Part shown: positions 5,718-46,386 of the stretch, one piece after another | How positions within the stretch are numbered: the first letter of the stretch is position 1 | Layout: each line of letters begins with the position of its first letter | DNA from: a bacterium | GTDB lineage: Bacteria; Electryoneota; RPQS01; DYHQ01 | Length of the DNA stretch: 64,000 bases | NCBI GenBank assembly: GCA_030622545.1 | Contig: JAUXGA010000003.1 | Coordinates: 86,748 to 150,747, forward strand | Direction: 5' to 3' | Notes under the pieces: model-generated | Seen by the model: only the letters and a program-made list of their open reading frames with translations | What the model was told of the DNA's origin: nothing | Databases searched by the model: none | Translations under genes and position numbers: made by a program

Positions 5718-6770
5718 CTATTTCGACAACATCATTTTCTGGATAGATACCGCTTCACCTGTACGGAGTCGTGCGAAATAGGTGCCGGACGCAAGACCAG
5801 TTCCAAGAAAGGTAAACGAGTAATCACCAGGGGACAGCGATCCGTCATGCAGCGTCTCGACCAAGCGGCCGTTGATATCGTAAATGGAAAGCTTGACGTC
5901 GGCGGTTTCCTGCAGCGATATTTTCAAGTTCGTAGTCGGATTGAAGGGGTTGGGATAGACCGGATGCAATGTCGCATTGGCCGACGCAGCGGATGGGCTG
6001 TCAGGCGGCTCGATGTTCGGATTATTCCCGAAGCGTCCATCTCCAAACCTGTTCCTCATCCGTTCATGCATTGCCTGCGCTTCTTCGAATTGAACATAGC
6101 CGTCGCCGTTGGCATCAGCTCTTTGGAACCTCTCCTGAATTCTGTTTGCCCTGCGCATCTCACATCCCACCTCGAACTCGTCGAAGCTCAGCTTACCGTC
6201 GCCGTTAACATCTCTCTGGTTGAACATATCTGGCGGCGGCGGGTTGTTTCCGCGTCTTCCTTGTCTTTTAGCGCGCATCGCTAATGCTTCTTCATGTTGA
6301 ATGTAGCTGTCGCCATTGGTATCAATCCTTTGGAATCTCTCCTGAGCCCTGTTTCTTCTGCGCATTTCGCATCGCGCTCCGAATTCTTCGAAGCTTAGTT
6401 TACCGTCACCGTTAACATCTCTCTGGTTGAACATATCCGGCGGAGGCGGATTGTTTCCGCGTCTTCCCTGTCTCCGGGCGCACATTGTCTGTGCTTCTTC
6501 ACGTTGAATGTAGCCATCGCCGTTAGCATCGGCCCTTTGGAAATTTTCTTGAGCTCTCTCCGCTCTGCGGTTTTCATGCCCGCCTTTGAACTCTTCGAAG
6601 TTCAGTTTGCCGTCGCCGTTGAGGTCAAAGTTGCTGAACCGCTGTTCAGGATTGCAGTCGCGCCCGCCTCTGAATTGAGCATAACCAGCGGCGCTGATAA
6701 CAAAAAGCGCCAGCAGTGCTGTTAGAGACAGGTAAATCAGCGCATTGCGTTTTGATTTGATTTTTAACAT
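5718..6770 (-). CDS. Secreted EF-hand calcium-binding repeat protein with a T9SS C-terminal sorting domain
   Basis: Signal peptide begins at the internal Met MLKIKSKRNALIYLSLTALLALFV. Multiple DxNGDGxxxxEE EF-hand loops. The tail PVYPNPFNPTTNLKIS...GTYFARL...MMLSK is a T9SS sorting domain. The ORF track extends to 6824. Confidence 0.7.
   Translation of the reverse strand: MLKIKSKRNALIYLSLTALLALFVISAAGYAQFRGGRDCNPEQRFSNFDLNGDGKLNFEEFKGGHENRRAERAQENFQRADANGDGYIQREEAQTMCARRQGRRGNNPPPPDMFNQRDVNGDGKLSFEEFGARCEMRRRNRAQERFQRIDTNGDSYIQHEEALAMRAKRQGRRGNNPPPPDMFNQRDVNGDGKLSFDEFEVGCEMRRANRIQERFQRADANGDGYVQFEEAQAMHERMRNRFGDGRFGNNPNIEPPDSPSAASANATLHPVYPNPFNPTTNLKISLQETADVKLSIYDINGRLVETLHDGSLSPGDYSFTFLGTGLASGTYFARLRTGEAVSIQKMMLSK
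5980..6640. repeat. In-frame tandem repeats of about 207 bp (69 aa) inside the EF-hand gene
   Basis: The unit DMFNQRDVNGDGKLSFEEF...RQGRRGNNPPPP occurs twice nearly identically, plus a diverged third copy. Near-identical DNA blocks sit about 207 nt apart, for example around 6181 and 6388. Confidence 0.8.
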
Positions 6771-6953
6771 GGTAAGACCCTTTCTTCCATATGTTATGTT
6801 TTGTGATTTTTGCTTCCCGTTCACCCATTAGACGAACCCAACGTCTGGTTTATTCCACCGCTAATTTGCCCGGAATGCAAAAAAAACCGGAGGCGAATCT
6901 CATTGACGAGATTGTCGTCTCCGGTGGAATTCCCCGCACAGCTTTAAACGTTA

Positions 6954-8702: not shown

Positions 8703-8727
8703 TACATTGAGCGGCTGACGGGACTCG
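8703..8727 (-). repeat. 25-nt copy of the tRNA-Gly 3' end; att-like direct repeat (putative attR) of an island ending at 16471
   Basis: TGAGCGGCTGACGGGACTCGAACCC is identical to 16447-16471. The flanking sequence diverges immediately and no complete tRNA can be folded here. Confidence 0.7.
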
Positions 8728-8844
8728 AACCCTACAGATTAACGCCCTCTAAGCCCTGTAAAATCAACAGTTACAAAATCTTCGCTTACTCTTAAGAGTG
8801 TCCTCCAGTGTGACGTAAATTGCTGTTCTTTGCTCTGGATTCTC

Positions 8845-8871
8845 CAAAAAACAGTACATTTTCAGTACAGG
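8845..8871. promoter_or_regulatory. Paired CAGTACA motifs (aaaaaacagtacattttcagtacagg); candidate integrase arm-type sites
   Basis: It shares the exact 15-mer aaaaacagtacattt with 30260-30274, which lies between integrase 2 and the tmRNA 3' end. Confidence 0.4.
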
Positions 8872-8963
8872 AAAGTAGAGGAAAGAACTTCGTCCACAGT
8901 CTCTTGAGACTCCTAAGTCTGTTCAATCTTGACGTTCATGAGCTGGACCAGTCAGAACATGAT

Positions 8964-11918
8964 TCACGACTCGTTCTTCAAACGTGCTAATCGTTTCTTG
9001 GCATCTTCGATTTTTTCTATTCCCGGATCAGCGTCCTTCCAAATGTCGAGGAACTCTTCGTATTGTCCGATAGCTTTATTCGTCCAGCCTGATTTCTCGT
9101 AAGCTAACCCCAAATGGTACTGAGCTGTCACCGCCTCAATGGCGGTCATTGCCCTGACGCCATCATACCTTGACAGCGCTTTCTCCAGTTCAGTTACGGC
9201 TTCACCCAGCCTTCCTGATTCCAAGTAAACTTCACCGGCGAAGAGCCCCATTAGAAAGGGCAGAGAGCTTGATTCTGCAGATGCCTTTTCTACGAAGGTC
9301 GCCGCCGCTTCGGTGTTTCCTTGAACCATCTCAATATTGCTCATAGCCAGCCAGTACCGATGCTTGTAGATCTGATCCCCTTTTTCAATATCCGCTTTCA
9401 AGGCCCGTGTAACTTCGTTAGCCTCTTCAATCTGGTTATTCTCCGCCAGCATCACTGCATAATAGTCCCGCTGATAAATTAAATCACTGGGATTGGCCCT
9501 GTGTAAAATTTCCGTGCATTTCTTAGCTTGAACAACGGCCGCTTCTGAATTCTTCATCTCCCGATAGATACTGGCTTTCAAGAAATGCTTCCATGCATTC
9601 TGTGTTCCACTATATTGTTCCATTCTGTCTGCGGCAAGCCCGTTGTCTAAAACCTTCAGCGCTTCTTTGAACTTTCCCTTTTGAAGAGGGATATAAGCGA
9701 GGTAGGTTCTTCCCGATGACCGAGTACCTTTTTCGCTGCCGGAGGCAAGCTCTTTGTAACAGCTTTCAGCTTTTGCGTACTCCCGTTTAAAAAGATACAT
9801 ATGTCCCAGTTTGTCCAAGGAACCGAAATCAGGTTTGATTTGCAGCGCCTTTTTGTAAGACTCAATTGCCTCGTCAATTTTACCATTGTAACCATAGAGG
9901 TCACCTCGAGTATCATAAGGATTAGCTTCATCAGGCGCGATTGAGATGTATTTGCTGATGGCCCAGATGGATTTGTCAAAATCACCAATGGCATTGTAGG
10001 CATAAGCAAGGAAATTATATGCCATCTTGTAGAGAGGATCTATCTCAATAGCTTTTGTGAAAGAGCGAATAGCTTTCTGAGGCTCATTGAGTAGATTGTA
10101 ATAAATGACACCCGACCACATATACGCGCGTTTCTCATCAGGATAGCGTTCGATTATCTTCTCAGTTTCCTTGATTGCCTGCATAAAATTTCCAGATACA
10201 GCTAAGTTCAGACTTCGTATAGAACGTTTCTCCTTCCAGCTTGCTTTGTCGGAATATTGCATGGCCTTATCTGCTAATCTTGCCTTTTCCGAACCCGATT
10301 TGAACATAGCCAAATGATAGTATGCAACGGCGAAAGTTGAGTCAAATTCCAGGGCTTTCATGAAACTCTTCTCGGCGTCGTCCCAATAGAACTTTTGGAA
10401 GAGTTCGATTCCTTCCAGATAGTGGCGATAGGCTTCCGGTGAGCTTGTGGTGACATTCTGTATGAGACGATCCGGTTCCTCTTGAGCTTCAGTGGGCAGG
10501 GCTAAGTCTTTCTTGATTTCAGCGGTCAGTTTATCAACCAATGAAAATATATCTTCGCCTTTATCGCCGGTGATTCGCTGCGAAGCAATCGCGTTGCCTG
10601 TGGAGACTTCGACCACTTGTGCCGTGATGGTAATCTGCGGTTCAACCTGCAGAATATTCCCCAGAAGCATCCACTTTGCTCCCGCTTTCGTAGCTATCTG
10701 TGTCGCAACGCTTCGGTCAACTTTTTTCTCGCCTTCCCTTCCTAAGAGCTTGAGAATATCATACAATCTCTGACTGGAAACCACTTGGACATAGTGCGAT
10801 TCCGACAGGTCAGTAATCAGGAGATTCGTAACGATCTCTCCCCATCGTTGCTCATCCTCCGCGTCGGCTACATTATCGAAGTACATGATGGCGAGTCGAT
10901 TCTCTGCCGCAACAGCTTCAGCAGCAGGTCGCACCTCGAATGTCCAGGGTTTGAAAAGGACTAGCAGCAAAGCGATGAGGATTACTATCGAACCGGGGAT
11001 GAGAAACCTCAATGCACTCCTTTTTCGGAGTGTCACAGGTGGATGAGCATAGACGCTCGATTCCGAAGCTTTCTTAAGCCGTTTCAAATCCGTCAATAAA
11101 CTCACTACTGTTTGATAGCGCGTCTCCAAATCCTTATCGAGAGCTTCGTCGATGATTCTCTGCAAATCATCCGGAACATCTGATTTATATCGTGCCAGTG
11201 GTTCGGGTGTGTCATGCACAATAGCATTCATGGTCGCCGCTTCGGTATCTCGCTGAAATGGTGACTGACCGGTAATCATCTCATATAAAACAACACCGAG
11301 TGAAAAGATATCTGATCGCTGGTCAGTTTCTTTGCCCTCCACCTGCTCAGGAGACATATAGCTGACTGTTCCAAGCGTCGAACCGGTTCGAGTGAGTTTC
11401 GCTGTTCCCTTGACCGTCGCCAATCCGAAATCAAGCAATTTTGGCCGACCGTCGGCGTCCATGACGATATTCGACGGCTTGATATCTCGATGAATAATCC
11501 CTGCTTCATGAGCCTTGCTCAAGCCCTCACAAATCTGCACAGCAAGATTAATGATGGTGCTGATAGACAACTCTTGTTTCTCGATGAAATCCCGAAGAGA
11601 TTGGCCTTCCATGAGTTCCATCGCGAAAAACGGACGGCCTTGAAAATCCCCGACTTCATAAATCGTCACGATATTCGGGTGATTCAGTTGCGCCGCCGCT
11701 TGTGCTTCGCGTTTGAAACGGGTGCGGCAGTCTTCATCTTGACATAAGTGAGGCGGGAGAAATTTCAGGGCAACTTTGCGATTGAGCTTCGTATCTTTGG
11801 CAAGATACACTTCTCCCATTCCACCGGCACCGATCTTCTCGATGATTTGGTAATGGGAGATTACCATTCCTTTGGAAAGGACAACATGTGTCTGCGTCTT
11901 GCCGTTTTCAGATTCCAT
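8964..11918 (-). CDS. Hanks-type Ser/Thr protein kinase with TM helix, TolB-N-like domain and C-terminal TPR array (paralog 1)
   Basis: Kinase motifs GAGGMGEVY, VALK, HRDIKPSNI, DFG and SPE. The likely start is the internal MESENGKTQ (the ORF track extends to 11981). After the TM segment comes LAIMYFDNVADAEDEQRWGEI, then many TPR-like repeats. Confidence 0.85.
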   Translation of the reverse strand: MESENGKTQTHVVLSKGMVISHYQIIEKIGAGGMGEVYLAKDTKLNRKVALKFLPPHLCQDEDCRTRFKREAQAAAQLNHPNIVTIYEVGDFQGRPFFAMELMEGQSLRDFIEKQELSISTIINLAVQICEGLSKAHEAGIIHRDIKPSNIVMDADGRPKLLDFGLATVKGTAKLTRTGSTLGTVSYMSPEQVEGKETDQRSDIFSLGVVLYEMITGQSPFQRDTEAATMNAIVHDTPEPLARYKSDVPDDLQRIIDEALDKDLETRYQTVVSLLTDLKRLKKASESSVYAHPPVTLRKRSALRFLIPGSIVILIALLLVLFKPWTFEVRPAAEAVAAENRLAIMYFDNVADAEDEQRWGEIVTNLLITDLSESHYVQVVSSQRLYDILKLLGREGEKKVDRSVATQIATKAGAKWMLLGNILQVEPQITITAQVVEVSTGNAIASQRITGDKGEDIFSLVDKLTAEIKKDLALPTEAQEEPDRLIQNVTTSSPEAYRHYLEGIELFQKFYWDDAEKSFMKALEFDSTFAVAYYHLAMFKSGSEKARLADKAMQYSDKASWKEKRSIRSLNLAVSGNFMQAIKETEKIIERYPDEKRAYMWSGVIYYNLLNEPQKAIRSFTKAIEIDPLYKMAYNFLAYAYNAIGDFDKSIWAISKYISIAPDEANPYDTRGDLYGYNGKIDEAIESYKKALQIKPDFGSLDKLGHMYLFKREYAKAESCYKELASGSEKGTRSSGRTYLAYIPLQKGKFKEALKVLDNGLAADRMEQYSGTQNAWKHFLKASIYREMKNSEAAVVQAKKCTEILHRANPSDLIYQRDYYAVMLAENNQIEEANEVTRALKADIEKGDQIYKHRYWLAMSNIEMVQGNTEAAATFVEKASAESSSLPFLMGLFAGEVYLESGRLGEAVTELEKALSRYDGVRAMTAIEAVTAQYHLGLAYEKSGWTNKAIGQYEEFLDIWKDADPGIEKIEDAKKRLARLKNES

Positions 11919-11923
11919 AAGTT

Positions 11924-14563
11924 TTATCCATATTTCTTTAGGAGCGCTTTGAACCGCGGATGTTCGCGGAGAGGATCCCATCTCGGATCGAGGCGAAGCA
12001 AAGGAACTGAGAGTTCGGAGGGAATCGAAAGAAGGTAGTCTATTTGGTCCAAGGCGGCATCGTACTCACCCACCATCACATAGATTTGCGCCAGGTCAGA
12101 TACGCGTTCTGGACCGATTAAAGCGTCTTTCAAGATTGGCATGAGCTCCATTCCCTGCTTCCCTTCGCGGATCGCCTCCTCCTTGCGTCCAAGGCCGGCG
12201 TAGACAATGCCAAGAGAGCTGTGAAGGCGGTAATCGTCGGGCCGCTCTTTCACTTCCGCTTCCAGCAGAATGCGGGCAGAATCGAAGGAGGCGCGGGCAA
12301 GCTCAGGCTCGCCCATGAGCCGATAAACCAAACCCGTCAATTGGACATTTGGGATGAGTCGATACTGGTCGTCCCAAGATTCGGAGGACATGGAAGCGGT
12401 CCGATCCAATGCCGCTTGGTAGTCTCTCTCATACATTTCTTGCAGAAACCATCTGTAGCCGACCTTACCGGGCATCTCTTCTAAGATGGCCCGGGACCGT
12501 ACGGTATCACCTTTCCACCGGCAGCAATTCTCGGCTTTCATGTAGTAGGAACCCACCTGATCTGGAGCTAAGAAAATGGAGCGATCGTAATAGCGCTCGA
12601 CTTCGGCGTACCTCCTCAGGTAGGTGTAGGTAACGGCGATCTCCGAAGTCAGCTTGGCATCGCGTGGGTTCAATTCGAAAGCGCTTTTCTGGCGGTCTAT
12701 GGCTTCTTTAAACCTCCCCTGCCTCCGCCAGATATAGGCTACCAAGAGATTCTTAGCGCGTGTTGGTGGGGGATGATGCTTCTCCGCGGCGGCTAAGGCT
12801 TCCAGTGCTCGATCATAATCTCGATAGCCCCAATAGTAGTAGTACCCAAGCGCCAGATGTGCTTCTGGGAGTTCCGGGCTAAGTACGAGTGCCCGATCTA
12901 CTCCTGTCTTGGCCTTGGTCAAGCACTCTTCGGTACGGTCATACCAGAAGTGATACAGGCCTGAGTAGTTCTTTGAGAGTGCGGCGTAAGCCAAAGCGAA
13001 ATTGGGATCGAGTTTTACAGCTCGCTCGAACATTTGAGTCGCCCGTCGGAAATTCTCCTCGGTACGGTCCGGTCGCGCTACATATTCAGATCCGCGAAGA
13101 TAGGCCTGGTAGGCATCGAGGTTCTCAGTCGGCTTGGCCTGTAGGTCTCGCTGCTCCGGTTCGAGCAGCGTAACGTCGAGCGCCTCGGCAATCTTGGTCG
13201 CGATATCCGCCTGCACCGCGAAGATCTGAGTCAACGACCGCTCGTAGCTATCCGCCCAGAGATGGATATCATCCGATACCTTAATGAGCTGCGGCGTGAT
13301 ACGCACCCGATTTGTATCGCCCGATTTGTCCCACCGAATAGTGCCCTCTAAAATGAATTCGACTCCAAGTTCCTTGGCAATCACCGGAAGAGTCTTGTCT
13401 GTTTTCTTGTACTGTATTGAACTGGTGCGAGAGATGACGCCAAGCTCCTGAATGCATGCAAGTCGTCCAATAATCTCATCCGTAATACCGTCAGCGAAGT
13501 ATTCATCCTCTGGAGCGCCGAGATTGACAAATGGCAACACAGCCAGCATCTTTTTCCCTTCGCTCACCCCAGCCTGTTCCTTCGGCCAGAACGAAAACAA
13601 AACAACGACTGCAACAACAGCTGCAACGACACTCCCAACCATAAACGGCCAGCGAAAAGAGCGCTTCGGTGCCGCGATTGTCGCTCGACTCTCTCTCCTG
13701 ACCGCCAGACCTTTTAAATCAGAGATGACACTGGCAGCATTCTGATATCTCAACGAAGGATCTTTCTCAAGCAACTTGGAGATAATTCGCTGCAGTTCAT
13801 CTGGTACATCGGCTTTATACCGAGCCAATGGTTCCGGTGTATCATTCTGTATGGAATTCAGAATTGCTGCTTCTGTCTCCCCTGCAAAGGGACGACGACC
13901 TGCAATGAGTTCATACAAAATTATGCCAAAAGAAAAAAGATCGCTGCGGTGATCAACTTCCTTTCCCTGTACTTGCTCGGGAGACATGTAGCCTACAGTA
14001 CCAAGAGTCGAACCGGTCCGTGTGAGTTTCTCTGTCCCCTTAACCGTCGCCAATCCAAAATCAAGCAATTTTGGCCGACCATCAGCATCCATGACGATAT
14101 TCGATGGCTTGATGTCGCGATGAATAATCCCTGCTTGGTAAGCCTTGTTCAAACCTTCACAGATCTGCAGAGCAAGATTGATTATTGACTCGAAGGTCAG
14201 CGTATTTTGTTTGATAACATCTTGCAGCGACTGTCCCTCCACATATTGCATGACGATGTAAGGTCGTCCCTGATGTTCGCTAACATCATGGATAGCAATG
14301 ATATTCGGATGATCCAAAACAGCGGCAGCCTGCGCTTCGCGTTTGAAACGAGTGCGGCAGTCTTCATCCTGGCATAAATGCGGCGAGAGAAATTTCAGGG
14401 CAACTTTGCGATTGAGCTTGGTGTCCTCCGCAAGATACACCTCACCCATACCACCAGCGCCAATCTTCTCGATGATTTTGTAATGAGAGATTAACATTCC
14501 TGGAGAGAGGATTACGAACGACTGTGTTTTCCCCATTCCATTGTCATTGACGTTTGAAGGCAT
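11924..14563 (-). CDS. Hanks-type Ser/Thr protein kinase with TM helix, TolB-N-like domain and C-terminal TPR array (paralog 2)
   Basis: The kinase domain is about 85-90% identical to paralog 1 at protein and DNA level. The likely start is MPSNVNDNGMGKTQ (the ORF track extends to 14671). LAVLPFVNLGAPEDEYFADGITDEI motif, then TPR repeats. Confidence 0.85.
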   Translation of the reverse strand: MPSNVNDNGMGKTQSFVILSPGMLISHYKIIEKIGAGGMGEVYLAEDTKLNRKVALKFLSPHLCQDEDCRTRFKREAQAAAVLDHPNIIAIHDVSEHQGRPYIVMQYVEGQSLQDVIKQNTLTFESIINLALQICEGLNKAYQAGIIHRDIKPSNIVMDADGRPKLLDFGLATVKGTEKLTRTGSTLGTVGYMSPEQVQGKEVDHRSDLFSFGIILYELIAGRRPFAGETEAAILNSIQNDTPEPLARYKADVPDELQRIISKLLEKDPSLRYQNAASVISDLKGLAVRRESRATIAAPKRSFRWPFMVGSVVAAVVAVVVLFSFWPKEQAGVSEGKKMLAVLPFVNLGAPEDEYFADGITDEIIGRLACIQELGVISRTSSIQYKKTDKTLPVIAKELGVEFILEGTIRWDKSGDTNRVRITPQLIKVSDDIHLWADSYERSLTQIFAVQADIATKIAEALDVTLLEPEQRDLQAKPTENLDAYQAYLRGSEYVARPDRTEENFRRATQMFERAVKLDPNFALAYAALSKNYSGLYHFWYDRTEECLTKAKTGVDRALVLSPELPEAHLALGYYYYWGYRDYDRALEALAAAEKHHPPPTRAKNLLVAYIWRRQGRFKEAIDRQKSAFELNPRDAKLTSEIAVTYTYLRRYAEVERYYDRSIFLAPDQVGSYYMKAENCCRWKGDTVRSRAILEEMPGKVGYRWFLQEMYERDYQAALDRTASMSSESWDDQYRLIPNVQLTGLVYRLMGEPELARASFDSARILLEAEVKERPDDYRLHSSLGIVYAGLGRKEEAIREGKQGMELMPILKDALIGPERVSDLAQIYVMVGEYDAALDQIDYLLSIPSELSVPLLRLDPRWDPLREHPRFKALLKKYG

Positions 14564-14594
14564 TTGAAACTCTCTTGAAGAAGACGTCTTCCTG

Positions 14595-16241
14595 TTATTT
14601 TTCCCTGTGCAAAACCACCATCGTAATATCATCGCTGCGTGGAACATCTCCGATGAATTTGCGTACTTCATTCATCACCAATTCTGTCAATTCTTTCGGA
14701 GATTGGTTGCGACACTGTTGGACAAATTCCTCTAACCTTTCATCACTGAATTGTTCATCCTGACAGTTGATTGCTTCAGGAATGCCATCCGTAAAAATGA
14801 ATAAATAGTCGCCAGTTCCGAACTCGAGAGATTCCTCTTTCCAAATGTCGTGATCCAGCATTCCGATTGGAACACCAGATGACTCAAGATAATCTACAGA
14901 ACCTGCATCTCGCAGAATCAACGGTGGATTGTGTCCCGCATTAACGTAACGAAAAGTATGCGCACTTGGATCGAGTACGCCGATAAAAAGCGTCGCAAAA
15001 TCTCCCGGACGGCTGAAGGTCAGTAATTGTTTTGACATACGGCGCACGGCATCCAATGGATGAAAATCCTTCGCGTTATGCAAAATGCGGAAACCGGCCA
15101 AGATGTTTGAGGCTAAGAGAGCTGCCCCCATTCCTTTACCACAAACATCCGCTACAAGAAATAGGATTCGCCCATCTTCGAATTTTGCAATATCATAGAG
15201 ATCACCACCGACCTGTTTGCACTGAATCTGAAAGGCATGGAAGCTGTAATTAGCAAGATGAGGCAACTCTTTCGGTAATAATTGCTCCTGAATTTGTGAT
15301 GCGGTTTCCAGTTCAGACTCTAAAACCTGTTTGGCTTGTCGCTCTTTGAGGAGATTGCAATTGGCGATTTTGGCGCCAAGAATATTTCCAAAAGTCGCCA
15401 TTACTCTTAGATGGTCTTCATTATAATGATGCATGGGATTGGTCGTATCCGCATACAGAATCCCCGTGATTTTATCTTCATCAAACAGCGGCACGGCCAT
15501 CGCAGATTTGATGCGTGATTCGATGATTGATTTTTGCGCTGCAAATTTACGATCCCTTTGAATATCAGACAGCAAAAGTGCATTCTTCTGATTGAGAAGT
15601 TCATGGACGACTGTTCGAGAGATGTTAAATGAATCTGAATGTCTTCTATCAGAAGTATAAGAAGCGGCAACAGCGATTTCTTCCTTTTGTTCCTCGGCAG
15701 AGAAGATGGCGATGCGTTCAACCGGAATAAGATCTTTGAATAATTCCAACGCTTGACCATACATTTCTTCCGCAGGGCCAGACAAAATAAGCATCTTTCC
15801 CAGTTCGGAGAAGGCTTTAAACAACTTCGGGTTCTCAAGTATTTTGGATGGAAGAGGTTGAAGCGCTTCCTTTATCGGCAATCGAGTGACATTCACCAGA
15901 CCATCTACAGAATCAGTAATATGAACCGAACTATGCAGAATGTCAGAAAATTCATCACGAGAAATTTTTGCTTCTATTCCGCCGAAAGTGATAATGTCAT
16001 CAAGTTGAATTTGTACAGTGCCATCGATTCTGTGTCCATCGACAGCAGTCCCATTGTGACTTCCGAGATCTGTCAGATTGATTGTTTGTTCATCAATAAC
16101 GTCGAGCTGGGCATGTTTCCGAGACACCGTTTCATCTTCTATTATCAATTCGCACTGCGGGCTCCGTCCAATTGTGTACTTACCGCGTTGCAAAGGCCAC
16201 TTCTTGTGTTTGCCAGCCGATAGAATGAAGAAGTTAATCAT
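14595..16241 (-). CDS. FHA-GAF-PP2C (SpoIIE/RsbU-like) Ser/Thr phosphatase
   Basis: N-terminal FHA domain (GRSPQCELIIEDETVSRKHAQL…NGTAVDGHRI), a central GAF-like region, and PP2C motifs (LVADVCGKGMGAALLAS, FTDGIPEA, DDITMVVL). Confidence 0.85.
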   Translation of the reverse strand: MINFFILSAGKHKKWPLQRGKYTIGRSPQCELIIEDETVSRKHAQLDVIDEQTINLTDLGSHNGTAVDGHRIDGTVQIQLDDIITFGGIEAKISRDEFSDILHSSVHITDSVDGLVNVTRLPIKEALQPLPSKILENPKLFKAFSELGKMLILSGPAEEMYGQALELFKDLIPVERIAIFSAEEQKEEIAVAASYTSDRRHSDSFNISRTVVHELLNQKNALLLSDIQRDRKFAAQKSIIESRIKSAMAVPLFDEDKITGILYADTTNPMHHYNEDHLRVMATFGNILGAKIANCNLLKERQAKQVLESELETASQIQEQLLPKELPHLANYSFHAFQIQCKQVGGDLYDIAKFEDGRILFLVADVCGKGMGAALLASNILAGFRILHNAKDFHPLDAVRRMSKQLLTFSRPGDFATLFIGVLDPSAHTFRYVNAGHNPPLILRDAGSVDYLESSGVPIGMLDHDIWKEESLEFGTGDYLFIFTDGIPEAINCQDEQFSDERLEEFVQQCRNQSPKELTELVMNEVRKFIGDVPRSDDITMVVLHREK

Positions 16242-16395
16242 ATCACCGTTTCTTTTTCTTTAGAACATAAGGACTTTCATAGGTGGATCATTATAATTTA
16301 CAGCAATTGACTCCGAAAAGCAATAGAGAAAGCGTTCAAAGAGTTCTGAAATCAAGGTATAAGCTGAAAGTATAAACAATCCATATCCTGCGAAG

Positions 16396-16429
16396 CAAAT
16401 AAAAAGGGATTAGAAAAAACCTAATCCCT
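16396..16429 (-). terminator. Rho-independent terminator of tRNA-Gly
   Basis: AGGGATTAG / CTAATCCCT stem followed by a U-run on the minus strand. Confidence 0.6.
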
Positions 16430-16446
16430 TGAATATTAACAACTTG

Positions 16447-16518
16447 AGCGGCTGACGGGACTCGAACCCGCAACACCCAGCTTGGGAAGCTGATACGCTA
16501 CCATTGCGTCACAGCCGC
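16447..16518 (-). tRNA. tRNA-Gly (anticodon CCC)
   Basis: RC reads GCGGCTG TG ACGC AATGGTA GCGT A TCAGC TTCCCAA GCTGG GTGTT GCGGG TTCGAGT CCCGT CAGCCGC T. This gives a 7-bp acceptor stem, a CCC anticodon in the loop and a GGGTTCGAGTCCC T-arm. CCA is not encoded. Confidence 0.85.
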
Positions 16519-16596: not shown

Positions 16597-17742
16597 TTAA
16601 TTCTTCGTAGACAAAATGGTAGACAATTCTGATGTGGAAGCTTTTCTAAGTGCCTGTTTCAAATCGGACATATCAAGTAATCCTGCATAGTTGTGGATGG
16701 TCGTCTGTATGCTGCTATGTCCCAAAATCTGTTTGACTGCGATTAAGGGAACACCGCTAAGAAGCATGTTCACGGCGAACGTATCGCGAAGGTTGTGCAT
16801 TTTCAGTGATCGTAATCCTGCTGCATCCCTGGCGCGATTGAATTTGATTGAAACATCATGTCGTATTCCCGGAAACAGTTTTCCTTTGCGTGGTTCTGGG
16901 AAAGCATTCAGAAGTTCTTTCTTCAGTACAGGTAAGATGGGAATTCGTCGTCCCCGTTTGGATTTAGTGATTCCCGCCGCTAAGATGATTTGCTCTGCAT
17001 CCAAGTCTACAATTCCGACGTTGGAAGAAATCACTTTCCTTGTGGTGTCGAACCATTCAAGTGATCGGGCTTCATTGCGCCGCATTCCTGTCAGTGATAA
17101 GACGACTAAGAAGGTTCGAATGGATACGCCGTTCTGGGTAATAGATTCGGCAGCTTCCAGCAATCGTCTGACTTCATCTGGTTTGTAGTAATCCCTGTTT
17201 ACCTGCGCGGGCACCCTGACTTCGTGAATGTGTGGGGGGTTCCATTCTTCCAGATCATTTTCCCTGACGCACCAATTCAGAAAGGCACGAAGATTACGAA
17301 GATGAATGTTCAGCGTATGTTTTGATAGTGGTCTAAGTCGTTTCTTCAAGCGGTTTCTGGCACCGCGTTTTATCAGTGCCGCCTGGAATTGGGATACGTG
17401 CTTCTTGGTTATCGCTTTCAACTGTAGATTTCCAACTACTTCCATAAAGATTTTCAGGGTGTGCTGGTGCAATTCACCGGTACGTTCACCCCATTGATGC
17501 TGCCGTTCTTCAAGGTATTCTTCCACCAGGCTGTGGATAGTTGGGCTGTCCTGCCCTTTGGCATTGGCAAAGGGATCGCGTCCGCGGTCAAGTTCGTGCT
17601 GAAGGTACTGGGCAATCTTAGTCGCTTCTTTCTTCTGGCTGGTTTGGGTGTTATGGGATTTTCGTCGGCCGTCTGGATATTTAATTTTCGCATACCATAC
17701 AGTCTTTCCATCAGCCAACGTCCTACGGTATAGTGATGTCAT
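16597..17742 (-). CDS. Tyrosine-type site-specific recombinase / phage integrase (integrase 1)
   Basis: C-terminal HxxR…Y catalytic motifs (HNLRDTFAVNML, HNYAGL). Start chosen at the internal MTSLYRR, preceded by the RBS AGGAGGG; the ORF track extends to 17790. Confidence 0.9.
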   Translation of the reverse strand: MTSLYRRTLADGKTVWYAKIKYPDGRRKSHNTQTSQKKEATKIAQYLQHELDRGRDPFANAKGQDSPTIHSLVEEYLEERQHQWGERTGELHQHTLKIFMEVVGNLQLKAITKKHVSQFQAALIKRGARNRLKKRLRPLSKHTLNIHLRNLRAFLNWCVRENDLEEWNPPHIHEVRVPAQVNRDYYKPDEVRRLLEAAESITQNGVSIRTFLVVLSLTGMRRNEARSLEWFDTTRKVISSNVGIVDLDAEQIILAAGITKSKRGRRIPILPVLKKELLNAFPEPRKGKLFPGIRHDVSIKFNRARDAAGLRSLKMHNLRDTFAVNMLLSGVPLIAVKQILGHSSIQTTIHNYAGLLDMSDLKQALRKASTSELSTILSTKN

Positions 17743-17760
17743 GGTTATCCCTCCTAAGAT

Positions 17761-17796
17761 AGAAAAACCCCGAAGTGACTGAATTGTCACCTCGGG
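17761..17796 (-). terminator. Strong rho-independent terminator between the nuclease gene and integrase 1
   Basis: 12-bp stem CCCCGAGGUGAC / GUCACUUCGGGG followed by UUUUU on the minus strand. Confidence 0.7.
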
Positions 17797-17828
17797 GCTC
17801 TTGGGTTAATGGATATGTTTCTACGTTC

Positions 17829-18635
17829 TCACGCCAGCGGATCAGCTATGCAGCTTACCTTGAATGGACAATCCACGCACTGCCATCCTGGGTTCGGGTA
17901 GAAGTGCTCCTCTCTCATGGCCTCACTTATCATCATCAGCATCCTCACAAATCGCTGTGCATCCTGATAAGTGCGATGGGTCTGGTACTTCAGGTGCAGG
18001 GGTGTTTTGTTCTTTAAAAGTACATCGAATCGAAGGTGGATGACCTCATTCTTCTCAATTGAATAGGCTTCCCGCGCCCAAAGGCTATAGGCTGTCAGCT
18101 GTAAGTTTCGTTGCACAGAATCATCAGTGTAGCGCGCACTGGCTGTCTTGTAATCCACGAACACAATATTCCCGTCATCAGTCTGCTCGATCAGGTCAAT
18201 TCTTCCGACCAAAGGCACGTCCAAAGTTTCGCCGGTTTCTCCATCCACGACATTCAGGGTGAAATCCTCTTCTACGCCCAGAACATCGCCGGGTTTGACG
18301 TTCTTCATGAAGCAATCTAACATCGCATGTCCCTGTTGTTGTATTTCTACCGGATCCTTGCCCGTCTTGAACTTCATCTCGACCTCAGCACAATCCTGAT
18401 ACAATCTCGTATCGAAGACGTCCTGAAGGTCTGTGATGGATGTTCTCTTTCTCTCTAAGTGATCGGTGTAATATTTCTCGATGGCTGCGTGAATAGCAGA
18501 TCCAAGCGTAAGGGCTGCTGGTTTGAATTGCCATTCCTCTCTGTCGATGTACTGGAAGCGATATCTCAGGGGGCAGATCAGGTACGTGTTGACTTGGCTG
18601 AAGCTGATATGGTCTGGGATGTTTGCGTAATTCAT
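17829..18635 (-). CDS. PD-(D/E)XK nuclease, Cas4/RecB-like exonuclease with a 4Fe-4S cysteine cluster
   Basis: N-terminal Cys (YLICPLRY), C-terminal C-x2-C-x5-C (CVDCPFKVSC), and a DYK-type nuclease core (FVDYKTA). Start at MNYANIPD with the RBS AAGGAGG; the ORF track extends to 18701. Confidence 0.75.
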   Translation of the reverse strand: MNYANIPDHISFSQVNTYLICPLRYRFQYIDREEWQFKPAALTLGSAIHAAIEKYYTDHLERKRTSITDLQDVFDTRLYQDCAEVEMKFKTGKDPVEIQQQGHAMLDCFMKNVKPGDVLGVEEDFTLNVVDGETGETLDVPLVGRIDLIEQTDDGNIVFVDYKTASARYTDDSVQRNLQLTAYSLWAREAYSIEKNEVIHLRFDVLLKNKTPLHLKYQTHRTYQDAQRFVRMLMMISEAMREEHFYPNPGWQCVDCPFKVSCIADPLA

Positions 18636-18717
18636 GGTGTTCCTCCTTTGGGTAAAAGGGAAGCGGCGCGGCCGATATGTTATTCGACTACGCCGCCTCA
18701 TTGCTCTGTTTAATTGA

Positions 18718-19479
18718 TTAGTTCCCGTTCAGGAAATGCCTCGATACCTGTCTGTTCCACGTCTCCGCGCGAAATGACTCCTGCCGTGTGAAGACATCAG
18801 TGAACGCATTATACAGGGCCCACTGATTATCTCCGTCCAGTGCCATGAACACATCGGCAGTGTACGTCTTGGGCAGCTTCAATTCACGGAAGGTGTTCTG
18901 GATGTCGGCTCTGTCGATGGGGATGTCCACTATCCTCTTCAGGCATGTGACTAATCCCAGCATCTTGTTAGACAGTTCTCTGATAGTGATGGCTGCTTGG
19001 GATAGCTCCTCAGTGAAGCCCTCGTTTCCGTAGTGCTTGAAACGGAAGCCCCCTAAGCGGAAGTCAACGACCATACCATTCGTGCAGATAAGTCTTTGCG
19101 CATTGAAGGCCAGTCCGAATGTCGTGCTGCCGTCATAGCTGTTAAATACGTCCACGGCTATCTGGACGATGTCGTCCTTCTGGGGTTCGAAGTTGATCTC
19201 CGGTAGAAGCCATCTTTGACGGTATCTCTTTCCATCGAACAGGTGTTTGGCTGACTGGTACTCATGGCCGGTTTTCTCCAGCACTTCTGTGGCGATCTCA
19301 CAAACGGTGTGGTTCTCGACCAGCTGATAGTCACCAGACACGATACCGACCTCTCTGTTCTCACAGTAGGGGTCAAGGATCACGGCATAACGCGAAGATT
19401 GCGCTCCGTTCTCAGTAAATAGGGGAACCTTTTTCACGGCGGCAAAGGGATCCAGGGGTTCAGTTGTTTTCTGTGACAT
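18718..19479 (-). CDS. Hypothetical phage/ICE protein, DUF932-like
   Basis: 253 aa. The central region VFNSYDGSTTFGLAFNAQRLICTNGMVV resembles the DUF932 signature. Recalled from memory, not searched. Confidence 0.45.
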   Translation of the reverse strand: MSQKTTEPLDPFAAVKKVPLFTENGAQSSRYAVILDPYCENREVGIVSGDYQLVENHTVCEIATEVLEKTGHEYQSAKHLFDGKRYRQRWLLPEINFEPQKDDIVQIAVDVFNSYDGSTTFGLAFNAQRLICTNGMVVDFRLGGFRFKHYGNEGFTEELSQAAITIRELSNKMLGLVTCLKRIVDIPIDRADIQNTFRELKLPKTYTADVFMALDGDNQWALYNAFTDVFTRQESFRAETWNRQVSRHFLNGN

Positions 19480-19568
19480 GATAGTTTCCTTTCTGGGTTA
19501 ATGGCATAAAAAAAGCCTCGACTTTCTTATGAAGCCGGGGCCTTACGATACGATAATTCTTGTTACTC

Positions 19569-20228
19569 TCATGCAGGTACATCCTCCAGGATTGTCAGTA
19601 GCTCGTCTGCCTCGTGTGTGGTCAGTGCGTACAGGGATTTCGAAAAGCGATTGCGGATCTTCTTGATTAGTTGGTTCTGGGGGATACCTTTTTGCTTGGC
19701 CACCTGGAAGATCTTGCTCATTTGGGCGTTGGTGACTCGGTGGGATTGCTCTTCGGGTTCTGCTTCCTCCTCTGGCTGTGGATTAGCTGATTCCTTGCCT
19801 CCGTTTCCGTTCGGCTTGATTTCCAGCCCGTACAGGTGCAGTCCCACACCGAACTGCGTGGCGCACTTCTTCAGGCAATCTGATGCTGCTCCTTTCAGGT
19901 CGTCTCCGATGCTCACAGGTTGGTTGTCCTGCTTGCCTCGTGTGATCGAAGATGAACCGAATTGCTGGTGTGTGATTCCGTGGGAAGATAATTCTCCAAG
20001 GACGATGACCTCGTCCTCAAGGATCAGGTGCTCGACGATGCGGAATGACCAGTATCCTTCCATCGCTTGGTTCAGGCGTTCGATGACGTAATGGGATCCG
20101 ACATAGTCCAGCATTTTGCCAAATCTGCCCTTACGTTGTTGGATTCTCTCCTCTTCGAATGGCTTGGTTAGCGCCTCAAGATTAAGGCGGCCATTACCGG
20201 TGCCGGTGGTTGTCTCGGTGGTTTCCAT
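19569..20228 (-). CDS. Rad52/Rad22-family single-strand annealing protein (phage Sak-like recombinase)
   Basis: The motif DDLKGAASDCLKKCATQFGVGLHLYG parallels Rad52 [23 protein letters not shown]. It is adjacent to the Cas4-like exonuclease, a two-gene recombination module. It has an acidic C-terminal tail. Confidence 0.6.
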   Translation of the reverse strand: METTETTTGTGNGRLNLEALTKPFEEERIQQRKGRFGKMLDYVGSHYVIERLNQAMEGYWSFRIVEHLILEDEVIVLGELSSHGITHQQFGSSSITRGKQDNQPVSIGDDLKGAASDCLKKCATQFGVGLHLYGLEIKPNGNGGKESANPQPEEEAEPEEQSHRVTNAQMSKIFQVAKQKGIPQNQLIKKIRNRFSKSLYALTTHEADELLTILEDVPA

Positions 20229-20271
20229 GATGAATTCCTTTCTTGTTGGTTAATGGTTTGAATTGTGAATG

Positions 20272-20306
20272 TGAAAAGCCCCCGCTGGAAACAGACCAGG
20301 GGGGCT
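20272..20306 (-). terminator. Hairpin terminator immediately upstream of the Rad52-like gene
   Basis: GCCCCCCUGG…CCAGCGGGGGC stem followed by a U-run on the minus strand. Confidence 0.55.
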
Positions 20307-20847
20307 CGGAACGTTTTGGATTAAGCCGGCAAACCCAAGAATAGGGTTCTGGAAATATTTCCCGAATTTTGCTCTCTATAAAGGCATCTCTATTTGTCTC
20401 GATAGGACTAGGTGGTAGTGAAAAATATGTGTGGATTTCCGGTGGAAGAAGCGGATTGGCTGCTTCTGGACATCAGATTCAGTTGGATACGCGCAAAATC
20501 ACGCCGAATTTACCACGTACACGTGCTTTAACAGTAGAAACTGATCTGACGTAAGTGGCTGTTTTTGGAAGGGGTAAGACTATGTCAGGTACTGGGCAAA
20601 TGGAAGGCAGGATGCCCCCGTAACATCTGCTGCTTTCGGATGAATGAAGCTGGGGGGACATCCCCTTGCGGGGTGGTGGTGATAGCAGGAAGGGATCTGG
20701 TATCAGTGATATGGCCTCTGCGGACTGTGATGGGGCTGGCACCTGTTACAGGCAGCTGTCGGCGGATACCACGCTGGGGACAGGTGACAGGGCCTTCCGG
20801 CCGGGGACTGCTCTTTCCTGTGGTGTGTTTGTCTGCTTCAGGGTCCG

Positions 20848-25741: not shown

Positions 25742-25747
25742 TAGCCA

Positions 25748-27047: not shown

Positions 27048-28180
27048 GTGCCGTTTCCGATAAGGTAATCCCGTTGAGTCGGAACGGGCAGGTTGTGCGT
27101 AGAAGGAGTAGGGTTCCAAATCTAAAAGGAGGTTGGATGTCTACTCCGGTCAAGCTTCGACCGATTAGCGATACCGAAGGTCAGGCATTAGTGCGGACCG
27201 TTCGGCGCTCGCCAGACCCGGTTGCTCAACGCCGTGCCACCTGTGTGTTGGCGGCGGCCACAGGGATGAAGGTGCCGCAGATTGCGCGTAACCAGTTGAT
27301 TGATGAGACCTTAGTGCGGCGCATTCTGCATGCGTTTAATGCCCAAGGTCTGGCTTCACTGGGCAACCGCTATGGCAAAGGTCGCCCGCGCAAGTTTGAT
27401 GACCACACGCGCCGGAAGATTGTCGATACCGTCTGTACTCCACCGTATCAACTGAAGCTCCCTTTCAGCGTCTGGTCGCTGCCCAAGTTGCGGGACTATC
27501 TGATCCAGAAGCGGATGGTGTCCTCCATCGCCATCGAGACGCTCCGGCGGCTGCTACGCGAGGAAGGAGTCAGTTTACAGCGCACCAAGACCTGGAAGCA
27601 GTCCACCGATCCTGACTACGCCGCTAAAAAAAAGCGGTCGAGCAGTGTTACAAAGCCGCGGAAGCGGGCCGCTGGACGGTAATCTGCTTCGATGAGTTCG
27701 GGCCGTTGGAAATTCGTCCGCATCCCGGTGTGGACTGGGCCCGTCATGGTCAGGTGCGACGATTACCGGCGACCTACAAACGTCCACACGGCACGCGGTA
27801 TTTATTGGCTGCGTATGATGTGCAGACCCAGGCGTTGTGGGGTTCTATCTACCAACGGTAGACGTGGAACGAGGTGCTCGACTTCCTGAAAGCGGTGCGT
27901 CGGCGTTATCCTGACGATAGGTGGTTACACGTGGTTCTCGACAATCGAAGCAGTCACAAAAAGCAAGAGGTGCGACAGTGGTGCGCGGCCAACCGCGTGC
28001 GGCTGGTCTTCCAGCCGACTTACAGTTCATGGCTGAACCGGATTGAATGCCAGTTCACCGCGCTCAAAAAGTTCGCGCTGAGCGGTCGCTATTTCAAAGA
28101 TCACGACGAACAGAATGCGGCGATCCGTGCCTACTTAAACTACCACCGAAAATCGAGATAACCTTTCGAGAAACGGCACT
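27048..28180 (+). mobile_element. IS630-family insertion sequence with a TA target duplication
   Basis: 29-bp terminal inverted repeats (GTGCCGTTTCCGATAAGGTAATCCCG / CGAGATAACCTTTCGAGAAACGGCAC) flanked by TA on both sides. Confidence 0.75.
27136..28161 (+). pseudogene. IS630-family transposase (HTH + DDE_3) with a frameshift at an A-run and an in-frame TAG
   Basis: Starts MSTPVKL with the RBS AAAGGAGG. Frame change at the A8 run GCTAAAAAAAAGCGG (27614-27628). Stop TAG at about 27858 (…IYQR*TWNEV…). The DDE region VVLDN…SH…QPTYSSWLN is in the last segment. Confidence 0.65.
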
Positions 28181-28466
28181 AGGCGTTAAAATCAGCACGA
28201 TCCGTAAATGGACGCACTACAAGTTTATCCCTCATATTAAAATGCGGCGCACCGTACGGTTTGACCGCGATGAAATAGATGCGTGGTTAAACAGGCAGGT
28301 AAGTAGAGGGAGAACTCAAATTCGACGGCAGTCACTATCTGCCGATGGCTAGAGATCAGTTAATCGAAAGGCTCCAATTAAAGGGAGCCTTTCTTCTTAC
28401 TGGGGAGGGGAACGAAATTGGGCGGAATATTTATCTTAGTTCTTTGGCATATTCTTAATGCCGAGC

Positions 28467-29066: not shown

Positions 29067-30191
29067 CTATTTCTTATCACTCTCACGCTTAGATCCAATT
29101 GCAATTTTGAGCTTCTTGATCTGTTGATGTTTGTGTTCAGGCAGTAGATTCAGGTACCGCTGTGTCTGGACGATACTGGAGTGACCGAGCCATTCCTGTA
29201 CGGTGCGGATGTCCACACCAGAGGCGAGGGCATTGGTGGCGAAGGTATGGCGGAAGAGATGAAGGCCGGTCATGTGGCGCCCTTTGTCGATGCGAACGCC
29301 TTCGTTTCTCTCTATGCGGTCAAGCAACGCAACCCATGTGTTTCGATTATGTCCCTTGGGATTGCCGTTTCGTCCTGTGAATACGTATGGAGTGGACTCA
29401 TCTCGTTGACGCCTAAGTTTCTTGAATCCTTCAATAGCTTCTGAATGAAGAGGAATAATTCGATCCTTGCGATTCTTTGTTCGGTGTGTTGTTGTGCTGC
29501 GAACTTTCAAATGTTCCTGTCCGGAAGTAAGATCTATATCCTGCCATTTCAGATACCTTGCTTCGCCGTCTCGCAAACCGGTATAGAGCAGGGTTTGATA
29601 GAAGGGTATCAGATGTTTTTGGGCATACTTGAAAATCAGTGCTAACTCATCAGGCGTTAGAATTTCAATAGGTGGTTTCTCAGCATATCTTTTGGTAATA
29701 TTAGCGGCAGGATTCCGCACAAGGTATTCTCTGCCTACTGCAAATCGGAAAAATCGTTTAATTGTGCCAAGTTCTTCGTTCCAAGTCTTAGCAGCGAGAA
29801 CTTCGGATCGATTGTCCAAGTGTTCTTCTATATCTTGTGTTGTAACCCTGACGAGGTTAATCAAACCATTGTCTTTGAGAAACCGTACAAAAGGTGAGAA
29901 CAACTGATTCAACCGCTTCGACCAAGAGGAAGACGTCTTATCGATCACACGAGAATAGAATTCCGCAATCACTTTCGGTGAACTTATACGCTGTTGGGGT
30001 AAGCCAGTAATGCCGCGTTCAAGATTCTTCTCAATATCGGCCTTGGCAAGCTCCGCCATCTTCTTGCCGGTAACTTTTAGAGATTTTTTAAGCTGTCTGC
30101 CGTTCTCCATATAAGTAATCCACCAGACTTTACCTGGTTTCTTCTGGCCCGAGGTTGGGTCGGTGATTTCACGACGATAGATTTTTGCCAT
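29067..30191 (-). CDS. Tyrosine-type site-specific recombinase / integrase (integrase 2) adjacent to tmRNA
   Basis: C-terminal LFRHTFATNALASGVDIRTVQEWLGHSSIVQTQRYLNL (HxxR…Y). Start at MAKIYRREI with the RBS AAGGAAAG; the ORF track extends to 30272. Confidence 0.85.
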   Translation of the reverse strand: MAKIYRREITDPTSGQKKPGKVWWITYMENGRQLKKSLKVTGKKMAELAKADIEKNLERGITGLPQQRISSPKVIAEFYSRVIDKTSSSWSKRLNQLFSPFVRFLKDNGLINLVRVTTQDIEEHLDNRSEVLAAKTWNEELGTIKRFFRFAVGREYLVRNPAANITKRYAEKPPIEILTPDELALIFKYAQKHLIPFYQTLLYTGLRDGEARYLKWQDIDLTSGQEHLKVRSTTTHRTKNRKDRIIPLHSEAIEGFKKLRRQRDESTPYVFTGRNGNPKGHNRNTWVALLDRIERNEGVRIDKGRHMTGLHLFRHTFATNALASGVDIRTVQEWLGHSSIVQTQRYLNLLPEHKHQQIKKLKIAIGSKRESDKK

Positions 30192-30252: not shown

Positions 30253-30274
30253 ACAGTACAAAAACAGTACATTT
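30253..30274. promoter_or_regulatory. Paired CAGTACA motifs (acagtacaaaaacagtacattt) between integrase 2 and the tmRNA 3' end; candidate arm-type sites
   Basis: Exact 15-mer match to 8846-8860. Positioned in the putative attL region. Confidence 0.4.
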
Positions 30275-30294
30275 GGATTTGGGTATAATATAAT

Positions 30295-30333
30295 AAAAAG
30301 AAAAACCCCTGTTAAGTAAGCACTTAACAAGGG
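30295..30333 (-). terminator. Rho-independent terminator of tmRNA
   Basis: CCCUUGUUAAGU…ACUUAACAGGGG hairpin followed by UUUUUCUUUUU on the minus strand. Confidence 0.65.
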
Positions 30334-30342
30334 CTAATTTGT

Positions 30343-30695
30343 GGAGACGGCGGGAATCGAACCCGCGTCCGAGAAGCGGACCACAGACGGTACCACAGGC
30401 TTCTTCGCTTGTTTAAAATCTCACTCCCAGGCCGCACAAACGACAAAACTATCAGGAGCCAGCCGCTAAATCTCGCGCGCTACTCGCGACACTGAAGCAC
30501 GCCAGCGGGTCTTAAATGGCGCTCGACTCATCAACCAACCCGCAAATCGGTGAGGAGCGTGCCACCTAATTCTTAGGCAGCAAGAGCATAAGTGCTATTG
30601 GCACTTGTGTTTTTGGGGTGTGATTATGGAGGATGCCCCAGCCTCCGCCTGCACCTTCTGCCACCCATTCATCCCGTCGAAACCAGATCGTCCCC
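30343..30695 (-). ncRNA. ssrA: tmRNA (SsrA)
   Basis: 5' end GGGGACGATCTGGTTTCGACGGGAT… and 3' end …GGACGCGGGTTCGATTCCCGCCGTCTCCA, a tRNA-Ala-like acceptor and T-arm. The internal tag reading frame is GCC AAT AGC ACT TAT GCT CTT GCT GCC TAA, giving (A)ANSTYALAA. Confidence 0.85.
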
Positions 30696-46368: not shown

Positions 46369-46386
46369 GATCGCGTAGGGAGAGAT

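Follow-up and report, generated by a model that had tools for sequence, protein, structure and literature searches.

Organization of the locus

The window, by which we mean the whole 64-kb stretch of DNA analysed, contains a tmRNA gene adjoined by the gene for a tyrosine recombinase (integrase 2), as well as a tRNA-Gly(CCC) gene that forms one end of an island encoding protein kinases. An Rfam search of positions 8000-31000 detected no RNA genes other than the tmRNA and the tRNA. The features of the integrase-2 island, including those that we interpret below as attachment-site arms, are as follows.

28047..28352, + strand: excisionase-like HTH_17 gene in the integrase-2 island, with homology over 28179-28352
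29067..30191, - strand: integrase 2, tyrosine recombinase; residues 1-59 are predicted to form a beta-beta-beta-alpha N-terminal domain
30254..30271, - strand: candidate P' (tRNA-proximal) arm pair of the integrase-2 island, TGTACTG-tttt-TGTACTG, first half-site at +91 from the T-loop GTTCGA
30287..30292, - strand: -10-like TATATT of a putative int promoter, 17-nt spacer from TTAACA (consensus match only)
30304..30335, - strand: element-borne terminator hairpin CCCTTGTTAAGT..ACTTAACAGGGG, directly 3' of the tmRNA and kept in all family P' arms
30341..30695, - strand: tmRNA gene, attL of the integrase-2 island, with the core at 30342-30362 (T-arm to 3' end)

The kinase island and the integrase gene next to it comprise the following.

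8707..8732, - strand: displaced 26-nt tRNA-Gly(CCC) 3' fragment (attR core), from the T-arm to 2 nt beyond the 3' end
8733..8900, - strand: candidate P arm (attR arm) of an integrase-2-family island, aligning without gaps with the P arm of the P0033 element at L377
8852..8869, - strand: candidate P (distal) arm pair of the tRNA-Gly island, TGTACTG-aaaa-TGTACTG, with the geometry of the L377/L378 family P arm
8964..16241, - strand: kinase-island cargo, two Ser/Thr kinase-TPR proteins and an FHA-GAF-PP2C phosphatase
16357..16375, - strand: TTATAC-N7-TTATAC at +92 and +105 from GTTCGA, a weak candidate for a kinase-island P' pair that has degenerated or is of foreign origin
16404..16430, - strand: terminator-like hairpin AAGGGATTAG..CTAATCCCTT, 3' of the intact tRNA-Gly, unrelated in sequence to the family hairpin
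16446..16518, - strand: intact tRNA-Gly(CCC), attL of the kinase island (repeat copy 16444-16469)
16597-17790, - strand: integrase 1, adjoining the 5' side of the tRNA-Gly; 23% identity to integrase 2

The two ends of the kinase island, 16444-16469 and 8707-8732, are identical at 26 of 26 positions. Between these repeats no integrase gene was found, and 8964-16241 is taken up by the two kinases and the PP2C phosphatase. The two kinase genes are paralogs, with a 300-nt stretch (11077-11376 versus 13707-14006) that is 64% identical.

Upstream of integrase 2, the putative int promoter consists of TTAACA and TATATT separated by 17 nt, with the -35-like TTAACA located in the 3' arm of the terminator hairpin that the element brings in. 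The -35 hexamer reads TTAACA in the window and TTGACA in relatives, and TATATT is conserved at family loci where the 5' end of int faces the tRNA. The pair at 30254-30271 starts about 16 nt downstream of the -10-like TATATT.

Two CAGTACA pairs at the ends of different islands

On the plus strand, the heptamer CAGTACA starts at 8852 and 8863 in the first pair and at 30254 and 30265 in the second, giving both pairs a start-to-start register of 11 nt and a 4-nt A/T spacer (TTTT and AAAA, respectively). Read in the tRNA sense, both become TGTACTG-N4-TGTACTG. The first pair lies 120 nt inside the exact 26-nt direct repeat of the tRNA-Gly(CCC) 3' end, and the second is flanked by the start codon of integrase 2 (30191) and the 3' end of the tmRNA (30341). 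A preliminary description of this DNA had reported both sites in these positions, each with two half-sites a few nucleotides apart, and an exact 15-mer, AAAAACAGTACATTT, shared between them; all of this was borne out, apart from a trivial shift in the first string quoted, which is present but starts at 8846 rather than 8845.

Since a common k-mer could mimic such a match, occurrences were counted within the 64-kb window. The exact arrangement CAGTACA-N4-CAGTACA is found twice in 64 kb, at 8852-8869 and 30254-30271, and allowing up to three mismatches to TGTACTG-N4-TGTACTG added two further matches, both poor. The 15-mer starts at 8847 and 30260 only, even with up to two mismatches (2 observed versus 0.13 expected; 0 of 100 shuffles). 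CAGTACA by itself is mildly, about 4-fold, enriched (12 observed versus 3.1 expected), and exact 7-mer repeats at an 11-nt register occur at about 1e-4 per position in the window. In viral contigs, the pair pattern, with its 14 specified bases, matched 120 contigs by chance, none of them in a tRNA context. That the pattern arises by chance in large unrelated collections makes the case dependent on context and not on rarity alone: the raw pattern by itself is not special, but its position relative to the att cores is far beyond chance.

A conserved pair at a fixed distance from the T-loop

Forty-one homologs of integrase 2 were collected (41-72% identity), and the DNA around 13 of them was read. 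Together with the window these give 14 family loci, whose integrases are 53-72% identical to integrase 2 and whose targets are tmRNA, tRNA-Asp and tRNA-Gly-CCC genes. The most useful family loci were retrieved by exact-protein look-up; an integrase-alignment scan of genome and metagenome contigs yielded at least three close relatives (L002, L003 and L082), and a protein scan of viral contigs yielded no integrase-2 relative above 34% identity. The closest named relative among the matches listed belongs to a Calditrichaeota MAG, and the genomes of the family loci are rich in T9SS sorting domains.

Each locus was set in the tRNA sense and anchored at the T-loop GTTCGA. The insertion target is tmRNA in the window and at L003, L082, L165, L171, L374, L377 and L380, tRNA-Asp at L002, L162, L168 and L293, and tRNA-Gly-CCC at L164 and L292. 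At all of these the order is the same: the 3' end of the tRNA or tmRNA, a hairpin of the CCCTGTTAAG..CTTAACAGGG type, a spacer, and then a same-sense direct-repeat pair, which begins +91 to +93 from GTTCGA, ungapped, in 14 of 14 loci. The register of the pair is 11 nt in 13 of the 14 and 12 nt in L377.

The integrase gene itself is not arranged uniformly. Its 5' end points toward the tRNA in the window and at L162, L164, L168, L292, L293 and L377, while at L003, L082, L171, L374 and L380 an xis-int module has its 3' end toward the tRNA; at these five loci TATATT is absent and the pair is nonetheless kept at its place. The presence of the pair in both arrangements indicates that its position goes with the att core rather than with the int promoter.

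The sequence of the half-sites varies in a concerted manner. They are TGTACTG/TGTACTG in the window, L162, L164 and L292; TGTGCTG/(C/T)GTGCTG in L002, L168 and L293; TGTCCTG/TGTCCTG in L003, L082 and L380; TGTCTTG/TGTCTTG in the P' arm of L377; and TGTGCC/CGTGCC in L165, with TGTGCTA/TGTGCT(A/G) as a further variant among the family loci. Both half-sites of a pair always change together between lineages, and five half-site types follow integrase clades. A scan of all family loci on both strands for GT[ACG]C[CT]-N6 followed by the same motif returned almost exclusively the arm positions, with three stray matches, and no other repeated candidate integrase site was seen in the arms.

The displaced target-gene fragments start at TTCGA, GTTCGA, GGGTTCGA or GCGGGTTCGA. 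Several loci are tandem arrays at tmRNA (L003 1008-1027, L082 1571-1595 and L377 2647-2667), in which a later insertion parts the family element from the intact gene and tmRNA fragments of 20-25 nt lie between elements. No second core copy was found within the 10-kb flanks of L164, L165, L171, L293, L374 or L380, and no single family element with both arms was recovered among the loci examined. We also observed a threefold arrangement of TGTCCTG sites in a relative, P0027, at L380 11129-11166 (also L381 and L382); the sites are placed +91, +102 and +122 from the T-loop of the tmRNA and are contained in the 3'-terminal part of this relative's int ORF.

Integrase 2 has a predicted arm-binding domain

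Integrase 2 matches PF00589 (2.7e-27), and the catalytic residues R207, H311, R314, H337 and Y346 of its R..HxxR..Y domain are invariant in 31 homologs. Its AlphaFold model (pLDDT 85.5) has structural matches to Tn1549, lambda, XerH and Cre, and full-length lambda Int aligns structurally with it over 357-367 columns. Ahead of the core-binding and catalytic domains, the model predicts strands at residues 3-10, 17-29 and 32-37 and a helix at 43-58. A Pfam search of this N-domain recognised no family, arm-binding families included. The predicted beta-beta-beta-alpha fold resembles known arm-binding domains.

Within the N-domain, residue 39 (motif S-L-x-V) can be set against the half-site: K goes with GTAC at four loci, G with GTGC at six, Q with GTCC at two and R with GTCT at one, the exception being P0008, which has K with GTGCC. 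Residue 39 thus appears to track the variable base of the half-site, a lead that comes from few independent lineages. The preliminary description had likened the pairs to integrase arm-type binding sites, and the recurrence of a pair at +91 to +93 in 14 loci, the co-variation of its half-sites and the predicted arm-binding N-domain all argue for that assignment.

The kinase-island pair has the geometry of a distal arm

At the end of the kinase island, the pair is placed differently. Read in the tRNA sense, it lies upstream of the displaced tRNA fragment, with GTACTG starting 138 and 127 nt before the GTTCGA of the fragment. The same arrangement was found at L377/L378, a tandem array at tmRNA in which a 21-nt tmRNA fragment marks the end of the element that encodes P0033, an integrase with 53% identity to integrase 2: at this junction GTGCC-N6-GTGCC lies 138 and 127 nt before the fragment's GTTCGA, exactly as at the kinase end. 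The 8733-8900 arm and the L377 P arm align without gaps over 160 nt with 76 identities (47.5%; z ~6.5), compared with 41.4 +/- 5.3 identities, and a maximum of 61, for shuffled arms; with the pair left out the identity is 47%. Given this agreement in both geometry and alignment, we read 8733-8900 as a genuine distal (P) arm, that is, attR. The independent examples of a P arm number two, the kinase end of the window and L377/L378.

L165 uses the TGTGCC/CGTGCC motif in its P' arm and L377 uses it in its P arm, which fits one protein reading both arms. The same half-site in both arms is seen across separate elements (the P' arm of the window and the P arm of the window; L165 P' and L377 P). The kinase-end arm and the integrase-2 leader also have a GTCACACT box in common. 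Despite this shared box, the possibility that the kinase-end arm is a clipped int-upstream (P') region was rejected, because the pair precedes the core fragment and has P-arm geometry.

We consider it probable that the CAGTACA pairs are arm-type sites of one heterobivalent lambda-like integrase family, 30254-30271 being the P' site of the integrase-2 island and 8852-8869 the P site of a second, tRNA-Gly(CCC) island; the more general reading of both pairs as arm-type sites is well supported by the comparative sequence data. The earlier view of two att-proximal arms is accordingly kept insofar as both are arms, but the two are not equivalent, the site at 30254 belonging to the P' arm of one island and that at 8852 to the P arm of another. 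The apparent layout of the family, as judged from these alignments, would be 2+2, with one pair at +91 and another at about -139/-128 from the T-loop.

Origin and mobility of the kinase island

The L164 and L292 integrases share 66% and 65% identity, respectively, with integrase 2; they have an identical TGTACTG-tttt-TGTACTG at +91 and adjoin a tRNA-Gly(CCC) that is 100% identical to that of the window. As both the arm pair and the target are the same as in the window, a close relative of integrase 2 aimed at this very tRNA-Gly exists. The sequence comparisons support the conclusion that the kinase island at tRNA-Gly was made by an integrase related to integrase 2; that integrase 2 itself acted there is unproven. 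The tmRNA-type and Gly T-arms differ at two positions (GTTCGATTCCCGC versus GTTCGAGTCCCGT), and the integrase-2 island supplies a tmRNA-type 3' end, which makes it a tmRNA-specific element and a separate insertion. The suggestion that the two islands are recognised by the same or related integrases hence stands for related integrases, on the strength of the L164/L292 pair and target and the P-arm geometry, while identity is unproven in view of the tmRNA-type core.

Integrase 1 was also considered as an explanation for the tRNA-Gly island. It is 23% identical to integrase 2, lies outside the repeats and is not the maker of the 8733-8900 arm. The sole integrase-1 homolog retrieved, P0047 (L379), lies 1.3 kb downstream of a tRNA-Arg(TCT) and points away from it.

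A related question is whether integrase 2 could still excise the kinase island and mobilize it, in cis or trans, as a live passenger in the manner of the CIMEs, a concept that is established (PMC5704250). Its 26-nt att repeats are exact, its P arm bears a perfect TGTACTG pair in the family geometry, and integrase 2 is encoded in the same genome with an identical pair beside its own gene. The tRNA-proximal end is less accommodating. In the attL arm (16242-16443) neither the family hairpin nor a TGTACTG pair was found. TTATAC-N7-TTATAC, at +92 and +105, occupies the place equivalent to that of the P' pair, but it has another sequence and a 13-nt register, and a 6-mer repeat falls in that 5-nt interval with a chance of about 0.009, making it weak. 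The attL arm could be a decayed P' arm or could stem from another lineage, for example by tandem accretion followed by internal deletion. Excision of the lambda type needs arm sites on both partners, and as the kinase attL arm lacks the family module, we rate the likelihood of present-day mobilization by integrase 2 as low; moreover, the core of the integrase-2 island is tmRNA-type and differs at two positions from the Gly T-arm. Overall, we regard a live, mobilizable kinase island as unlikely, and the proposal that the island is a mobilizable passenger, which is without an integrase of its own, appears doubtful.

Other explanations for the paired repeats

An explanation to which we assign a somewhat lower probability, and which we would call rather improbable, is that the pairs bind an excisionase or directionality factor, namely the HTH_17 protein, rather than the integrase N-domain. 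An HTH_17 gene accompanies int at nearly every family locus and in the window (28179-28352). The sites of excisionases and directionality factors are typically repeats arrayed head to tail and phased with the helix. Direct repeats of 11 nt with A/T spacers would accommodate a winged-helix filament, and a tandem 11-nt repeat could equally suit HTH_17. However, the lambda, L5 and P2 directionality factors act on one arm, whereas the motif type seen here occurs on both sides of the core (P' in 14 loci; P in the window and L377), and the layout of an excisionase, with tandem sites in one arm only and placed between an integrase arm site and the core, was not observed. In addition, the arm-binding domain predicted for the integrase itself would require sites, and half-site type tracks integrase residue 39 in most lineages.

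It appears very improbable that 30254-30271 is only an operator of the int promoter, serving repression or autoregulation by Int, with 8852-8869 a relic that has no role in recombination. The promoter-like TTAACA-17-TATATT directly upstream of the pair, the retention of TTGACA/TATATT where the int 5' end is toward the tRNA and the GTCACACT box common to the kinase-end arm and the integrase-2 leader would all be in keeping with an operator, but the five loci with a reversed int keep the pair at +91 without TATATT, and the kinase-end pair lies upstream of the core fragment, in P-arm geometry, and not downstream. Furthermore, autoregulation and an arm-site role can coexist, and the former is no substitute for the latter. 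A cyanobacterial-type LexA box, a GTAC direct repeat, was considered as well and dropped because its spacing is wrong (8 nt versus 11 nt).

Finally, although the heptamer is enriched in the window and the 14-base pattern turns up in large collections, coincidence can be given negligible weight as an explanation for an exact pair that occurs just twice in 64 kb, both times at att arms and at family-specific distances.

Neighbouring elements

A second mobile module, 16597-24046, abuts the 5' side of the tRNA-Gly and encodes integrase 1, a PD-(D/E)XK nuclease, a DUF932 protein, a Rad52-like annealing protein and a 1018-aa primase. A search for the att ends of this module found none. At the 3' end of integrase 1 (16607-16626), within its last codons, GTAGACAA-N4-GTAGACAA forms a repeat with a 12-nt register; in the tRNA sense this places TTGTCTAC twice, 158 and 146 nt upstream of the GTTCGA in the intact tRNA-Gly T-loop. 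The TTGTCTAC repeat has a P-arm-like geometry that might serve a different integrase, and the integrase-1 element might use tRNA-Gly and carry the 5' part of the tRNA.

Between the integrase-1 module and the integrase-2 island, about 24860-28160 (24864-25744, 25710-26543 and 26927-28161) holds IS debris, namely DUF4096 with a DDE fragment like the IS at L171 and an HTH transposase of the IS630-like type, together with a subtilase fragment of high GC (0.59). No tmRNA fragment that would mark the distal end of the integrase-2 island was found in the 64-kb window, and the island has probably been truncated by the IS debris, which would explain the absent end.

Two other repeats were observed elsewhere in the window. 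A 40-nt family, CATTCCGGGCAGATC..GATCTGCCTCGGCGAG, occurs at 32889-32928, 33025-33064 and 46334-46373, with related copies at 41649, 44026 and 44056; it has an internal palindrome and looks like a REP-type intergenic repeat. At 6068-6688 a 207-nt unit occurs three times in tandem (the later copies are 80% and 64% identical to the first) within ORF 5718-6824, the C-terminus of which has a tblastx match to T9SS sorting-domain regions of related loci.

A model for integration and its implications

With the pairs read as arm-type sites, we propose that the T-loop region of tRNA and tmRNA genes is where integrases of this family place their islands. By analogy with lambda, L5 and HPI, the four N-domains of an integrase tetramer would occupy two sites per arm and bridge to core sites in the T-arm. 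Crossover would be placed in or near the T-loop because the displaced fragments start at TTCGA, GTTCGA, GGGTTCGA or GCGGGTTCGA. As the pair at 30254-30271 begins about 16 nt beyond the -10 element, just downstream of a putative int promoter defined by consensus match only, bound integrase could also repress int. The kinase island, for its part, would have lost its own int/xis and P' module and would now be an integrase-less remnant.

A more ambitious version of this model would make integrase 2 a shared recombinase acting in trans on several islands at different tDNA sites of this genome. If so, a single integrase lineage could move among tmRNA, tRNA-Asp and tRNA-Gly by virtue of a rigid 2+2 layout (+91/-139), just a few residues of the N-domain would determine arm specificity (at residue 39, K/G/Q/R with A/G/C/C at the variable base), and a kinase/phosphatase signalling cassette without an integrase would still be mobile by way of integrase 2. 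We give this combination little credence as a whole.

What the analysis offers is a proposed attP layout for an uncharacterized integrase family, defined from sequence alone and made up of four parts: the T-loop core, an element-borne terminator with the int -35 in its stem, a pair at +91 and a pair at -139. It would also explain the origin of an island that has no integrase and bears two Ser/Thr kinases and a PP2C phosphatase. The half-site variants, matched with N-domain variants, form a natural test set for how arm-binding domains read DNA, and the fixed geometry can be used in annotation to find orphan att arms and decayed islands. The current understanding of such systems is not overturned, and we consider the case modestly interesting for its orphan attR with signalling cargo, its rigid geometry across three targets and its series of half-sites.

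Comparison with known systems

In phage lambda, the arm-type sites of Int are P'1-P'2-P'3 beside int and P1/P2 in the other arm. Integrase 2 is likewise a three-domain tyrosine integrase with a small N-terminal beta-sheet/helix domain, and its family has short direct repeats in helical register near the core-proximal element end and further sites in the other arm; the L380 relative even has three sites (+91, +102 and +122). The family differs in its TGTNCTG-like sites, for which binding is predicted, in its target, the T-loop of tRNA and tmRNA genes, and in its apparent 2+2 layout (+91, -139), and its N-domain has no detectable sequence similarity to the arm-binding families of Pfam.

Mycobacteriophage L5 and the integrases of the Yersinia HPI/P4 type also integrate into tRNA genes and have paired, adjacent arm-type sites. 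Compared with these, the integrase-2 family is another lineage, from uncultured, T9SS-bearing, Calditrichota-like bacteria, with another site sequence, and it switches between tmRNA, tRNA-Asp and tRNA-Gly with the arm geometry kept.

The tDNA islands catalogued by Islander are bounded by an intact target gene on one side and its displaced 3' fragment on the other, with an integrase expected inside (PMC4383910). The kinase island has a regenerated intact tRNA and a displaced 3' fragment forming its 26-nt repeat, and the relatives L003, L082 and L377 have tandem arrays at tmRNA, but the kinase island departs from the definition in having no integrase gene, integrase 1 being outside the repeats and 5' of the tRNA. 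A CIME, or cis-mobilizable element, is a decayed island that has lost its integration genes and kept attL and attR (PMC5704250). Like a CIME, the kinase island is integrase-less, has att repeats at its ends and has a related integrase in the same genome; unlike a CIME, it has family arm sites on the attR arm only, with the cores intact at both ends, the related integrase sits at a different target gene and not in tandem, and mobilization is conjectural. The arm-site layout described here is a new, family-level example of lambda-type arm sites in uncultured bacteria, and the kind of system to which it belongs is already known.
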